Below are positions 10,428-32,108 of a stretch of 64,000 bases of DNA, one piece after another. Position numbers and translations under genes: made by a program. Each line of letters opens with the position of its first letter. Within the stretch, counting starts at the first letter, position 1. Source of the DNA: a virus (taxonomy: Duplodnaviria; Caudoviricetes); IMG/VR virus record IMGVR_UViG_3300005611_001698, positions 32,001-96,000 of that record; one strand, given 5' to 3'. The notes under the pieces are model-generated. The model was not told the origin of the DNA. It worked only from the letters and a program-made list of their open reading frames with translations, and made no database searches.

Positions 10428-11060
10428 TTATGCCCAATCAAGTGCTCTCGCAACTGTGGGATACTGATGTGCAAAGATAGTCTTACACTCCTCTGCAATC
10501 TCCATATGCTCCTTCTGAGTGCCGTTAGCAGACCTCAGAGAGATGTAATGAATCCAACTACGACAAGATCCTGTCATGTAGATTCTAGTGGGTGTAGCAA
10601 GCGGTAGAACAAACCTTGCACATTCCTTAGCAACTCCTGCTTCAAGCATATCTTCATACAGATCTACTGCATGATCAAACTGTAAACGAATACGTTTGCG
10701 GAAAGACTCTGATACATCACGGGGAAGATCATCAATAGAGTTCTGACGATTCTTTGTATCCTGACGACGAAGTTCGGGAATAGAAATCTTACCCAACTCT
10801 GTGCTATCAGCATATCGTTGAGAAAACTCTTGAAACGTAAATGAACGGTGCCGCAAAATTTGTGCCGCAATCGCTCTTGTAGTTTCAATTTGTAGAGTCA
10901 TGTATGCTTGTTCAAACACAGACCAATGCTGATGCTTGATGCAATATTTTAAAAGACCTTCAAAACTTTCATTGTCTTGATTCTTTGGATTGCTCACACG
11001 GGCAATATACGCCATGTTCTGTTCAGGACTTGGTGTTGCCTGAATTAGTTTTACTTTCAT
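10428..11060 (-). CDS. thyX: Flavin-dependent thymidylate synthase
   Basis: HQHWSVFE, QILRHRSFTFQEFSQRY, ARFVLP motifs. Confidence 0.96.
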   Translation of the reverse strand: MKVKLIQATPSPEQNMAYIARVSNPKNQDNESFEGLLKYCIKHQHWSVFEQAYMTLQIETTRAIAAQILRHRSFTFQEFSQRYADSTELGKISIPELRRQDTKNRQNSIDDLPRDVSESFRKRIRLQFDHAVDLYEDMLEAGVAKECARFVLPLATPTRIYMTGSCRSWIHYISLRSANGTQKEHMEIAEECKTIFAHQYPTVARALDWA

Positions 11061-11248
11061 CAGCAATCCTCGCAATCCTCTTCTTTATGTTTCTTTCTGA
11101 TCTTTTTAAGTTCTTTCATCTCTTCCTTGATCATTTTGTATGCATCTTCGGAAGAAATCTTTCGTGCCATTTCCATAGCAACGATAATCTCTACTCTCGT
11201 TCCATAATGAGATAGAGCTTTTTCAAAACAGTTTAGTTCTTCGTACAT
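11060..11248 (-). CDS. Hypothetical protein
   Basis: 62-aa ORF tightly packed with neighbours. Confidence 0.7.
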   Translation of the reverse strand: MYEELNCFEKALSHYGTRVEIIVAMEMARKISSEDAYKMIKEEMKELKKIRKKHKEEDCEDC

Positions 11249-11459: not shown

Positions 11460-11500
11460 ATTATACACAAAAAAAGAGGGAGTGTCAATCTCCCTCTTTG
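11460..11500 (-). terminator. Rho-independent terminator overlapping a sigma70 promoter
   Basis: AAAGAGGGAG-ATTGACA-CTCCCTCTTTTTTT; TTGACA 11488-11483, N17, TATAAT 11465-11460. Confidence 0.85.
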
Positions 11501-11505
11501 ATTAT

Positions 11506-11640
11506 TCACTTTTTGATTTGAGCAAGTTGTGCTTGCTGACGACGCTGTTCTTTTTCAAGTTGATCTTTGATCAGTTGAAGAACATTGATTTTGTGATCTT
11601 CGACATTGTACTTAACACCACGATAAGTTGCGGTAGTCAT
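11506..11640 (-). CDS. DUF4278-family small protein (44 aa)
   Basis: Hand-translated MTTATYRGVKYNVEDHKINVLQLIKDQLEKEQRRQQAQLAQIKK; YRG motif; AGGAG SD. Confidence 0.85.
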   Translation of the reverse strand: MTTATYRGVKYNVEDHKINVLQLIKDQLEKEQRRQQAQLAQIKK

Positions 11641-11644
11641 TTGT

Positions 11645-11882
11645 TTACTCCTGAATGAATGGGGGGTTTAACCTTTTACCCTTTCGGGTGATCCGTTTCC
11701 CGTTCCTTCAATCGTTTGCGTCCCAGTTACAACCTCTTTCTGTTGCGTCTTTAATAGTATTGACAATTTCTACTTTGATTAAATCACTCATGTCTTGATT
11801 AGCCTTTGCCCTAGCAACAAGTTGCTTAGCATCAGCACAAACCAATTCAGCAGAAAGTAAAAATTCTAACATAGGATGAACG
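11645..11882 (-). ncRNA. Glutamine riboswitch aptamer 2 (Downstream-peptide / glutamine-II type) with greatly expanded P2 loop
   Basis: CGUUC-A-UCCUA...UGGGA-CGCAAACGAUUGAAG-GAACGG; P1 11882-11878/11705-11701; lies upstream of a DUF4278 ORF, the usual context. Confidence 0.75.
11708..11872 (-). CDS. 54-aa small protein nested inside riboswitch aptamer
   Basis: MLEFLLSAELVCADAKQLVARAKANQDMSDLIKVEIVNTIKDATERGCNWDAND; GGAG SD 10 nt upstream; two Cys. Confidence 0.75.
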   Translation of the reverse strand: MLEFLLSAELVCADAKQLVARAKANQDMSDLIKVEIVNTIKDATERGCNWDAND

Positions 11883-11884
11883 CT

Positions 11885-11925
11885 CCGTTCCGCGATTTAC
11901 TTGCGATCCCAAATGGGATTGAACG
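11885..11925 (-). ncRNA. Glutamine riboswitch aptamer 1 (glnA / Downstream-peptide family)
   Basis: CGUUC-A-AUCCC-AUUU-GGGAU-CGCAAGUAAAUCGCG-GAACGG. Confidence 0.75.
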
Positions 11926-11932
11926 TAAGGTC

Positions 11933-11984
11933 ATTATAGACCATATGCCTTATATATGCAAGTAGTTTTGTAAAATGTGATACA
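11933..11984 (-). promoter_or_regulatory. sigma70 promoter plus NtcA box
   Basis: TTGCAT(11961-11956)-N17-TATAAT(11938-11933); TGTA-N8-TACA at 11969-11984. Confidence 0.7.
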
Positions 11985-15061: not shown

Positions 15062-15150
15062 ACCATCAGGGAAATGGTGGTGTTACTATTCCTCAGGCAC
15101 CCTCATCCTGAGGTATGAGAGACGTGTTTATACTCCCCATAGGTCTCGGT
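15062..15150 (-). ncRNA. PhotoRC-II RNA motif (psbA leader)
   Basis: GAGAC..GUCUC, CCUCAGG..CCUGAGG and ACCAU..AUGGU stems in a phage psbA 5' UTR; recognised from memory of the family. Confidence 0.75.
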
Positions 15151-15202
15151 TAATGAGAGTTGCAACTGTTTAAGAAACGTTACATTCCTTAACGTGTTGA
15201 TG

Positions 15203-29746: not shown

Positions 29747-29756
29747 GGGTTAATAT

Positions 29757-29923
29757 GCTCGCCACCTGGTTTTTGAAAAGAACCAGGAAACTTTGCGGAT
29801 GTAGCGCACCACTTGCTCTTTATACGGAAGCAAGAAACCGTCGAGGGGTCCCGACCAGTGCTGTTATAGACCATCCGTGTCTTGGGTTTGACTCCACCAC
29901 CTAGTTTCAGGAACTAGGAAACT
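29757..29923 (-). ncRNA. manA RNA motif
   Basis: GACACGGAUGG..ACAGCACUGGUCGG core plus GUUUC-stem-UGGYG hairpin units; lies between tRNAs and GDP-mannose genes, the typical context. Confidence 0.75.
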
Positions 29924-30952: not shown

Positions 30953-31023
30953 TCGGGGCGGCAAGAATCGAACTTGCACCTCCGCGTCCCAAACGCGGCA
31001 TTCTACCACTATACTACGCCCCG
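30953..31023 (-). tRNA. tRNA-Pro (TGG)
   Basis: CCGCG-TTTGGGA-CGCGG anticodon arm, GTTCGA T-loop. Confidence 0.93.
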
Positions 31024-31112
31024 TGGAGGAAGAAGCGAGATTCGAACTCGCGGAGGCTACTAACCCCATCAGTTTTCAAGGCTGACGCAATCAACCACTC
31101 TGCCATTCTTCC
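31024..31112 (-). tRNA. tRNA-Ser (TGA)
   Basis: Long variable arm, CTTGAAA loop, encoded CCA. Confidence 0.92.
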
Positions 31113-31297
31113 ATATGAACAAACTGTTCTTGCATATTATAAAACAGTTTATGGGTTTCTGTCAAGACATAATACCCAACAATACTTTTACCATCATCTG
31201 TCCAACCATATCCCTTAACCCTCTCACATTTACCATCAATTGTAAAACACTTATCAGTGTGAAGATAACTCTGGTAACGGTCGTCCAGATTAATCAT
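31091..31297 (-). CDS. Hypothetical protein
   Basis: 68-aa ORF coupled (TAATG) to upstream gene; 3' end overlaps tRNA-Ser. Confidence 0.7.
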   Translation of the reverse strand: MINLDDRYQSYLHTDKCFTIDGKCERVKGYGWTDDGKSIVGYYVLTETHKLFYNMQEQFVHMEEWQSG

Positions 31298-31545
31298 TAA
31301 CGTACCTCAAAATCAAGTTTACGAACCTTTCGTTTACGTCGGTTCTCCTGGTATTCTAAGTCCTGTTTTGTTAGAATACCCTGATTATTTACAATCTTTT
31401 CAGAATTCAGTAATACTACTTTACTTAGGTCCGAGGCTGAAACCTTGTCCTCCCTCACCATCATCTGGTTGGGACAACCGCAGCACTGAGTCTTGTTGTT
31501 GCTTGTCAACTCTACATTGCAACTCTTGCATCTGACTGATAACAT
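31297..31545 (-). CDS. Zn-ribbon-like hypothetical protein
   Basis: CKSC..CCGCPN; C-terminal RRKRKVRKLDFEVR. Confidence 0.75.
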   Translation of the reverse strand: MLSVRCKSCNVELTSNNKTQCCGCPNQMMVREDKVSASDLSKVVLLNSEKIVNNQGILTKQDLEYQENRRKRKVRKLDFEVR

Positions 31546-31645
31546 CTTTTAACATTCCTTTAATTTCTTCTAGTTCTTCATGAATATCTTGATGATGAAA
31601 CCGAAGAGGTTTCTGAATCATTTCTTTGAGTTTTTTCTTTTTCAT
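31421..31645 (-). CDS. Hypothetical protein
   Basis: MKKKKLKEMIQKPLRFHHQDIHEEL; long overlap with next gene. Confidence 0.5.
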   Translation of the reverse strand: MKKKKLKEMIQKPLRFHHQDIHEELEEIKGMLKDVISQMQELQCRVDKQQQDSVLRLSQPDDGEGGQGFSLGPK

Positions 31646-31661
31646 ATATGTATGTAATAAA

Positions 31662-31733
31662 TGGGAGATACTGGGATCGAACCAGTGACTCATTCCTTGT
31701 AAGGGAATTACTCTACCGCTGAGTTAATCTCCC
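31662..31733 (-). tRNA. tRNA-Val (TAC)
   Basis: ATTCC-CTTACAA-GGAAT anticodon arm. Confidence 0.93.
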
Positions 31734-31903
31734 TACTCTGGTGGGGAAATATTTAAAATATATTCCACAGTATTCGCAACATCATTCATAGCATCACGAA
31801 GAAAAGGTTGTTGACCAGCCTCCATTAACATTGGATCTTTATGATCCGTAAGAGTCCATCTCCATTGTTTCATTTCTTCCGAGTACCACAAATTAATTTT
31901 CAT
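31733..31903 (-). CDS. Hypothetical protein (56 aa)
   Basis: Hand-translated MKINLWYSEEMKQWRWTLTD..LRDAMNDVANTVEY. Confidence 0.7.
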   Translation of the reverse strand: MKINLWYSEEMKQWRWTLTDHKDPMLMEAGQQPFLRDAMNDVANTVEYILNISPPE

Positions 31904-31939
31904 AATATGTTTTTTTGGTATTTATGGGCATGTGCCCAG

Positions 31940-32010
31940 AGCGAATGACGGGGATCGAACCCGTGACACCAACTTGGAAGGATGGGATGTTACCGCTACA
32001 CCACATTCGC
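31940..32010 (-). tRNA. tRNA-Gly (TCC)
   Basis: CTTCCAA anticodon loop; GCGAATG/CATTCGC acceptor stem. Confidence 0.92.
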
Positions 32011-32034
32011 ACGAATGAAGAGGAAAAATGACAA

Positions 32035-32108
32035 CGGGCAAGGAGGGATTCGAACCCCCGACCTACGCATTAGAAGTGCGCTATTCTAATCCACTGAACT
32101 ACTTGCCC
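32035..32108 (-). tRNA. tRNA-Arg (TCT)
   Basis: GCGCA-CTTCTAA-TGCGT anticodon arm. Confidence 0.93.

Follow-up and report, generated by a model that had tools for sequence, protein, structure and literature searches.

Results

A gene lies inside a glutamine-aptamer-like leader

The DNA analyzed here, which we call the window, is a 64,000-nucleotide (nt) stretch of a 194-kb T4-like cyanophage genome (positions 32,001 to 96,000 of IMG/VR record IMGVR_UViG_3300005611_001698). Our subject is a compact operon of about 460 nt (11961-11465); all coordinates are window positions, and all features given by them lie on the minus strand. From 5' to 3' the operon comprises a promoter, a structured leader, an open reading frame (ORF) nested within that leader, a spacer, a 44-codon ORF, and a terminator. 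The leader (11925-11701) contains two glutamine-aptamer-like cores, as read from the sequence and from comparison with Rfam. The nested ORF (11708..11872; phrog_504) has 54 codons and a UGA stop and would encode a small two-cysteine helix-loop-helix protein. A 60-nt spacer separates the leader from the downstream 44-codon ORF (11506..11640), whose DUF4278-like (IF17-like) product starts with MTTATYRGVKY.

A preliminary description of this DNA, made from its letters alone, had recognized two aptamer-like units with the same ends and a large insert in the P2 loop of the second, and all of these features lie on the minus strand where it had placed them. Unit 1 (11925-11886) has a 3' end that reads CGGAACGG. 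Unit 2 has the same ends as unit 1, CGUUCA-UCCUA (11882-11872) and UGGGA-CGCAAACGAUUGAAG-GAACG (11725-11701), and its P2 loop holds the 54-codon ORF complete and intact, as had been claimed. The match of the observed features is far beyond chance. When the window was scanned with Rfam at the gathering threshold, nothing was returned at the locus, and a permissive scan returned unit 1 only and no unit 2. Unit 1 scored 30.1 bits against Glutamine-II (RF01704; gathering score 33, local E value of 1.8e-5), with several noncanonical pairs in the pseudoknot stem, and 28.5 bits against Glutamine (RF01739; gathering score 35, local E value of 4.7e-4). Does the large loop obscure the relationship? Natural ORF-free relatives served as loop-deletion controls for Infernal scoring, a check that the preliminary description had proposed. 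Phage Bellamy carries both units with a UUCG tetraloop replacing the ORF, and its compact unit 2 scored 34.5 bits against RF01739, just 0.5 below the gathering score. Compact composites of the Bellamy type are about 85 nt long.

The nested frame has the hallmarks of a protein-coding gene

We considered whether the 54-codon frame might be untranslated and conserved for its RNA structure only. The two ends of the ORF do pair with each other in the window, as would suit this explanation. However, the frame diverges as a coding sequence does. Among 56 distinct members of the window's nested-protein family, the median ratio of nonsynonymous to synonymous substitution (dN/dS) was 0.32, and diversity at codon positions 1, 2 and 3 was 0.42, 0.21 and 0.565, respectively. 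Homologues thus bore out the coding test suggested in the preliminary description: the ORF is conserved and its indels are in frame only. The loop lengths of the unit 2 P2 helix (here P2b) vary by multiples of three, and GACGCA stands in frame 0 in 94 of 95 ORF-bearing loci.

The translation signals of the nested gene also track the ORF. Its AUG begins with the last base of UCCUA, the 5' strand of P2b, and GGAG lies 10 nt upstream. The start codon had been assigned to that strand and the Shine-Dalgarno (SD) sequence to the linker between the units, and both assignments held. The linker contains GGAG in 84 of 94 ORF-bearing loci but in 0 of 23 loci that lack the ORF, a distribution that suits a role as the SD of the nested gene.

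Finally, the product belongs to a recognized phage family. Its match to phrog_504 is full-length (E value of 1.8e-18), with residues 1-54 aligned to positions 1-53 of the 53-position profile, and a tblastn search found about 247 GenBank phage records that encode the full-length protein. C12 and C48 are invariant in the alignment, and AlphaFold2 predicted a helix-loop-helix with a predicted local distance difference test (pLDDT) score of 81.5, from an alignment in which one row from a GenBank record had been left out. The protein has no Pfam match; a Foldseek search of the PDB returned nothing below E = 1, and one of the Atlas recovered the viral clusters of the protein itself and no others. 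We conclude from these comparisons that the nested frame is a protein-coding gene. It is most improbable that the frame is untranslated and kept for the sake of RNA structure.

The 3' end of the gene behaves differently from its body. The ORF ends in W-D-A-N-D-UGA within the conserved 3' half of the aptamer, an overlap that the preliminary description had pointed out. Over the last five codons, third-position diversity drops to 0.02, versus 0.565 in the gene body, and the synonymous sites of GAC GCA are fixed in 95 of 97 ORF-bearing loci. Because of this drop, and because GAC GCA is fixed in ORF-free loci too, we place the last five codons under RNA rather than protein constraint.

The two cores are interlaced and share a helix

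The preliminary description had drawn independent tandem aptamers, each closing its own P1 helix. This part of it did not survive comparison with related loci, which indicates that the cores are interlaced and share a covarying helix, P3. When RNAalifold was applied unguided to 16 ORF-free loci, the first CGUUC paired with the last GAACG, and the middle GAACG-NNN-CGUUC formed a hairpin. The crystallized 61-nt glutamine-I aptamer has the order CGUUG-A-P2-CGGAAGUAA-P3-UGAAG-CAACG, in which GAAGUAA and UGAAGC together form the E-loop (PMC5393176). In the window, CAAGUAA (11903-11897) and UGAAG (11710-11706) would flank P3 as they do in the crystallized aptamer. In the phage RNA, AAGUAA comes from unit 1 but UGAAG from unit 2, so that a complete aptamer exists in the outer reading only.

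We regard the following anatomy of a composite sensor around the nested gene as very likely. The outer P1 pairs CGUUC (11921..11925), a strand that does not vary among loci, with GAACG (11701..11705), as in the RNAalifold structure and in loci L138 and L164. An unpaired A11920 separates it from P2a, the compact hairpin of the outer core (AUCCC-AUUU-GGGAU, 11906..11919), in which 5 of 5 pairs show compensatory changes among ORF-free loci. Next comes the junction CGCAAGUA (11898..11905), which with A11897 makes up the 5' half of the E-loop; it matches CGGAAGUAA of the crystallized aptamer and is invariant in alignment A2. P3 pairs AAUCG (11893..11897) with CGAUU (11710..11714) across the ORF. 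The 3' half of the E-loop is UGAAG (11706..11710), which matches the crystallized UGAAG, contains the nested stop UGA (11710-11708), and forms part of a putative strand that masks the downstream ribosome-binding site (RBS).

Within P3 lies the inner core. Its P1 equivalent is the hairpin GAACG-GAG-CGUUC (11878..11890), which is predicted without constraints and contains the SD GGAG (11886-11883). The loop of this hairpin, which is the linker between the units, is 3 to 6 nt across loci, and CAACG/CGUUG occurs as a compensatory variant of its stem (IMG/VR scan 2, below). P2b pairs UCCUA (11872..11876), whose final A is the A of the nested AUG, with UGGGA (11721..11725; codons W50-D51), and the inner-core junction CGCAAA (11715..11720; codons A52-N53) has the fixed synonymous sites noted above. 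The CGUUC that lies shortly before the nested AUG finds its partner nearby, in the GAACG ahead of it, so that the helices that span the ORF are P2b, P3 and the outer P1.

The ORF-spanning helices covary, which indicates that the RNA folds around the gene. Covariation of P2 in cyanophage homologues had been suggested as a check, and it was found: pair 4 of P2b, which reaches across approximately 150 nt, is C-G in 68 loci, U-A in 20, U-G in 6 and mismatched in 1, with C-A in 0. For P3, all 27 distinct combinations of tails form 5 to 8 pairs, and none of 5,000 shuffles reached the observed pairing. The lengths of the two P3 strands also co-vary (6 with 9, 7 with 10, 9 with 12). Among the 16 ORF-free loci (alignment A1), 5 of 8 P3 pairs change on both sides, while among 94 ORF-bearing loci P3 is paired in 96% of cells, again with compensatory changes; the AAUCG/CGAUU of the window departs from the common AGUCG/CGACU by one such double change. 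For the 16 ORF-free loci, the whole structure outperformed 500 of 500 shuffles by every measure. The P2b of the window is further extended by pairing of the first 8 codons (11849..11872) with codons 42-49 (11725..11748). This extension adds about 16 pairs (-13.5 kcal/mol, matched by 0.4% of shuffles) and is present in every predicted conformer of the window; across loci there is a modest tendency only.

Could the leader nonetheless consist of two independent tandem aptamers, each with its own P1, so that both P1 and P2 of unit 2 span the ORF? Rfam aligns the units separately, and tandem glnA RNAs have been reported (PMC2864571). Three caveats also apply. Nearest-neighbor energies are equal for the two topologies (-65.0 for interlaced and -64.7 for tandem) and do not separate them, which leaves room for the tandem form as a minor conformer. 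The P1 strands are nearly invariant, so that the interlaced P1 rests on three variant loci together with P3 and the E-loop argument. The covariation statistics, moreover, ignore phylogeny. However, the tail of unit 1 covaries with that of unit 2, unit 1 is without the UGAAG half of the E-loop and unit 2 without AAGUAA, and both units fall below the gathering score. The three variant loci, found in IMG/VR scan 2, carry CAACG...CGUUG, which fits the swapped pairing only. In L138 and L164, the outermost strands are still CGUUC...GAACG: interlaced pairing gives two perfect helices, whereas tandem pairing would put C-C and G-G mismatches into both P1 helices. Hence, we consider independent tandem aptamers quite improbable.

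Interlacing also bears on the Rfam scores. The RF01739 model allows neither an interlaced layout nor a 150-nt loop. Standard covariance-model scans miss the locus, since its units are interlaced, are interrupted by genes and score below threshold.

Nested genes recur across cyanophages

To survey the layout, we scanned IMG/VR twice, once with an 18-nt inter-unit junction as the probe, which is blind to ORFs (scan 1), and once with a pattern anchored on the 3' half alone (scan 2). Each scan returned at least 120 contigs, and 370 GenBank cyanophage records matched the locus by blastn. In 95 of 120 loci of scan 1, the P2b loop was 136-190 nt long and held an ORF of 49-66 codons; in the other 25, it was 6-22 nt long. 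The ATG stood 10 nt past the C of CGUUCA in 86 of the 95 ORF-bearing loci, and in 88 of them the stop was UGA or UAA inside the conserved CU(G/A)AAGGAACG, with proteins ending in DAND or DAKAD. Tail lengths were multiples of three only where an ORF was present. These matches indicate that the nested-gene layout is common to hundreds of cyanophages. Among cultured phages, S-H9-2, S-SSM5 and S-CAM22 are examples.

Unit 1 can carry a gene as well: its loop held an ORF of 61-75 codons, with the ATG 10-13 nt from CGUUCA, in 36 of 124 loci. These unit 1 ORFs (for example, L002:665-880) start about 10 nt past CGUUCA, which itself lies only some 15 nt downstream of the -10 box of the promoter. Such genes would have a very short 5' leader with no SD, which suggests a mode of initiation unlike that of the unit 2 genes. 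Phages S-CAM9 and Sf-FS3 have another small ORF in the unit 2 loop, and Sf-FS3 has one in the unit 1 loop too. A TDPxCF-type protein occupies loop a (of P2a) in some phages and loop b (of P2b) in others (profile comparison, hhalign probability 99), and the window's nested family is related to this TDPxCF-type family (probability 92).

Other arrangements were seen at single loci. L131 (3-569) has an open frame of at least 188 codons, without a Pfam match and truncated by the contig end, whose 3' end is 1 nt short of the unit 2 CGUUCA. Only the last 13 codons of this frame are kept in the inner hairpin loop of L134, where about 61 nt lie between GGAACGGAG and CGTTCATCC. The linker may be a third place for gene insertion, to judge from these loci. 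L137 is a deletion variant in which the unit 1 ORF appears to be fused to the unit 2 ORF, with loss of the middle of the sensor; in L187, a second deletion variant, the unit 1 GGAAC is joined directly to the 3' part of the nested ORF.

Does the layout occur in cells? A structure-anchored pattern found three matches in approximately 186,000 GTDB species genomes (L126, L127 and L128), all in marine metagenome-assembled genomes, labeled Verrucomicrobiales, uncultured bacterium and Euryarchaeota, respectively. L128, which carries td and phoH and shares about 80% identity with Synechococcus phage S-SM2, is a mis-binned cyanophage contig. The three matches in these genomes thus support no cellular occurrence, the one examined (L128) being cyanophage DNA.

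This diversity raises the possibility that the nested gene is a passenger. The riboswitch would then control the DUF4278-like gene only, and the nested gene would be translated more or less constitutively, its interference with the sensor being a cost. Loops tolerate insertions, and the conserved aptamer halves would serve as homology arms for cassette exchange between coinfecting phages. P2a, P2b and possibly the inner hairpin loop are each empty or filled in different loci, and one protein family can sit in either loop a or loop b. ORF-free versions are common (25 of 120), deletion and fusion variants occur, and all predicted conformers of the window have a closed P2b. However, the distance from the ATG to the helix is constant to within 1-2 nt, almost every locus has the SD in the inner hairpin, and the stop falls within the masking strand in 88 of 95, with tail lengths confined to multiples of three only where there is an ORF. 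Such positional precision of the ATG, SD and stop suggests that the overlap is selected and not merely tolerated. A passenger gene is therefore a possibility that we take seriously but doubt.

The sensor can pair with the ribosome-binding site of an IF17-like gene

The preliminary description had stated that the leader precedes a DUF4278 ORF. This holds for the family: in 113 of 120 loci, the next gene after the sensor is a YRG-type DUF4278/IF17-like ORF, and RefSeq lists the S-SSM5 homologue under DUF4278. For the window copy, "DUF4278-like" is the better term: its protein matches Pfam DUF4278 (PF14105) over residues 3-20 only, with an E value of 0.043 and 14.6 bits, below the cutoff of 25.3. 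The downstream proteins of relatives have two YRG motifs. The window peptide has the first only; from about residue 20 onward it departs from these proteins and ends in a Q/K-rich helical tail whose best Pfam match is an unrelated helical domain.

The persistence of this gene also bears on whether the units still sense glutamine. They might instead be a riboswitch-derived structured leader or a recombination module, with a fixed structure and translational coupling. Their Rfam scores are below threshold, and the inner core is without an E-loop. Yet all the conserved segments of the crystallized aptamer are nearly unchanged in more than 100 divergent loci in which neighboring coding sequence is near synonymous saturation, and the association with an IF17-like gene has been kept in those 113 of 120 loci. 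We judge the loss of glutamine sensing to be very improbable.

How might the sensor act on the downstream gene? The RBS region CAUUCAUUCAGGAG (11648..11661) contains the SD GGAG (11651-11648), and positions 11659-11652 can pair with 11703-11710 at the 3' end of the sensor. Across loci, the SD-adjacent CUU(C/U)AGGAG is complementary to the CU(G/A)AAG of the sensor. The preliminary description had noticed that UUGAA can pair with UUCAG at this SD, and comparative data strengthen the observation: in 101 loci, the middle base of the nested stop and the RBS-adjacent base form G-C in 50, G-U in 22 and A-U in 29, with A-C in 0. The conformer of the window with this masking helix is predicted to lie about 8 kcal/mol below the closed sensor, a calculation that ignores ligand and tertiary contacts, and the helix is predicted when the leader is included. 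Greater stability of the masking conformer without ligand fits the ON-switch model of the Synechocystis gifB leader, in which the 3' strand is proposed to pair with the RBS region (PMC6212724).

An optional leader module (11670-11695) lies between the sensor and the RBS and consists of ACGGAUC, a GNRA-type hairpin and AAAAGGUUAA. The hairpin, ACCC-GAAA-GGGU (11678..11689), is predicted to lie inside the sequestrator helix; its stem varies but stays paired. Of the 113 loci in which a YRG-type ORF follows, 16 have the module; their leaders are 56-63 nt, versus 29-40 nt in the others. We considered the module (11695-11670) as a degenerate third aptamer and dropped the idea, as its flanks do not match the core motifs.

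A model for reciprocal control

With somewhat better than even confidence, we favor a composite glutamine-I-type riboswitch leader with interlaced cores, a nested gene and reciprocal control. The outer core would consist, in order, of CGUUC, A, P2a, CGCAAGUAA, P3, UGAAG and GAACG, which are all the conserved segments of the crystallized aptamer. P3 would open into a second, circularly permuted core made of the GAACG-GAG-CGUUC hairpin, A, P2b and CGCAAA. The nested gene would sit in the loop of P2b, with its SD and AUG in the inner hairpin and P2b and its stop in UGAAG. Because the sensor helices close around the gene, sensor folding and nested translation would be mutually exclusive on one RNA.

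With glutamine present, the sensor would close. The nested SD would be held in the triloop hairpin and the AUG in P2b, so that the nested protein would not be made, and the UGAAG-GAACG strand would be withdrawn from the downstream RBS, so that the IF17-like peptide would be made. With glutamine absent, the 3' strand would mask the downstream RBS and the nested gene would be translatable, mostly by ribosomes that bind ahead of, or during, formation of the long-range helices. A ribosome engaged on the nested gene would occupy the 3' strands of P2b, P3 and P1, keeping the sensor open, and on terminating at the nested UGA it would traverse the masking strand. For this reciprocal logic as stated, our confidence falls slightly short of even.

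Several points weigh against the model. Both window units score below the Rfam gathering score. That either core binds glutamine, that ribosomes translate the nested ORF and that control runs in the proposed direction are all predictions from sequence. The extended P2b is present in all predicted conformers, and burial of the AUG may thus not depend on glutamine. Moreover, a ribosome terminating in the masking strand could unmask the downstream gene at low glutamine, which may blur the reciprocity.

A more elaborate version of the model is conceivable, but we think it rather unlikely as a whole. The leader would have two glutamine sites and act as a translation-gated toggle that yields the nested protein when glutamine is low and the IF17-like peptide when it is high. 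The two proteins would act oppositely on host nitrogen assimilation, and a sensor held open by ribosomes would give a memory-like, bistable choice. The conserved aptamer halves would double as recombination arms for swaps of the nested cassette.

Operon boundaries and genomic setting

The probable promoter of the operon (11933..11961) has a -35 box TTGCAT (11961-11956), a 17-nt spacer and a perfect -10 box TATAAT (11938-11933), and the predicted transcript start lies 2-5 nt ahead of the sensor. Relatives have TTGACT-17-TATAAT at the equivalent position. Because the -35 box of the window matches only 3 of 6 consensus positions, this promoter was absent from the list produced by a consensus scan. 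The -10 box lies inside an inverted repeat, GGTC-TATAAT-GACC (11929-11942), where many relatives have GGTCTATAATAGACC; the repeat may be an operator for a DNA-binding protein.

An intrinsic terminator with a 10-bp stem and a T run (11465..11499) closes the operon. A perfect sigma-70-type promoter (11460-11488; TTGACA, 17 nt, TATAAT, 12/12) begins inside the loop of the terminator hairpin, so that termination and the next initiation overlap. Downstream of the operon, a 215-amino-acid ORF (10428-11075) contains the stretch RHRSFTFQEFSQR, which by eye resembles the ThyX thymidylate synthase motif, and thymidylate synthase genes are found in the equivalent neighborhood of Bellamy and S-SM2.

Elsewhere in the window, a PhotoRC-II RNA (15078-15172; 73 bits), a wcaG RNA (29751-29842; 64 bits) and five tRNA genes (30953-32108) scored above their Rfam gathering scores. 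Their presence identifies the window as T4-like cyanophage DNA.

Discussion

Riboswitches are usually described as a compact aptamer followed by an expression platform. In the cyanophage leader, whole genes would lie inside the aptamer, and ligand sensing, long-range folding and translation would be physically coupled on one RNA. The preliminary description had suggested a translation-coupled two-output riboswitch, and our literature search found no description of the nested-gene layout, although it did not take in the tandem drawings of Ames and Breaker (2011) and Ren et al. (2015). Nor did a literature search find a gene-inside-aptamer architecture for any riboswitch class.

The leader nevertheless has relatives of several kinds. 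Group I and group II introns carry ORFs in peripheral loops, and the phage leader resembles them as a structured RNA with loop-borne, free-standing genes that are present or absent among relatives. In contrast to the introns, it is a metabolite-sensor-type mRNA leader and not self-splicing; its nested proteins are tiny and nonenzymatic, and the translation signals of its nested genes overlap the sensor helices. In the RNA coliphage MS2 and in erm leader peptides, ribosomes unmask downstream starts that are hidden by long-range pairing. Likewise, translation of the upstream frame in the phage leader would melt a helix that hides the next RBS. Here, however, the masking strand would also close a ligand sensor, and the upstream frame appears to be a conserved protein and not a leader peptide.

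Tandem glycine aptamers are cooperative. The phage leader shares with tandem riboswitches the presence of two sensor-like cores, possibly for a sharper response, but its cores appear nested, with P1 strands swapped and one helix shared. We know of no protein-coding gene reported inside a riboswitch of the tandem glnA or tandem glycine type.

Among glutamine riboswitches, the closest counterpart is glutamine-I (RF01739). The phage sensor keeps CGUUN, A, P2, CG(G/C)AAGUAA, P3, UGAAG and NAACG in that order, precedes a DUF4278/IF17-like gene, and has a 3' strand that can pair with the RBS region, as in gifB (PMC6212724). It differs in that P3 opens into a permuted second core and not a short hairpin, one or two hairpin loops hold whole genes, and helices span 150-420 nt. 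The nested SD, AUG and stop are parts of the sensor, and each unit falls below the gathering score. Glutamine-II (RF01704; PMC6698751) offers a CGUUCA-hairpin-CGCA core and a link to DUF4278-type peptides of marine picocyanobacteria. No glutamine-II-type pseudoknot is evident in the phage RNA, however, which has an E-loop and P3 instead, and its 30.1 bits fall below the 33 required.

A 2017 survey of riboswitch distribution (PMC5473149) counted no more than two glutamine aptamers in cyanophage genomes, from which it inferred that riboswitches are seldom used by phages. In contrast, 370 cyanophage records and at least 120 contigs in each IMG/VR scan match the locus described here. The phage leader is a widespread and apparently undescribed variant of the glutamine riboswitch. 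The natural ORF-free and ORF-bearing variants provide ready controls for its study. The leader would serve two small phage proteins, probably tied to the nitrogen status of the host, and nitrogen status is a main limit on marine cyanobacteria and on phage yield.

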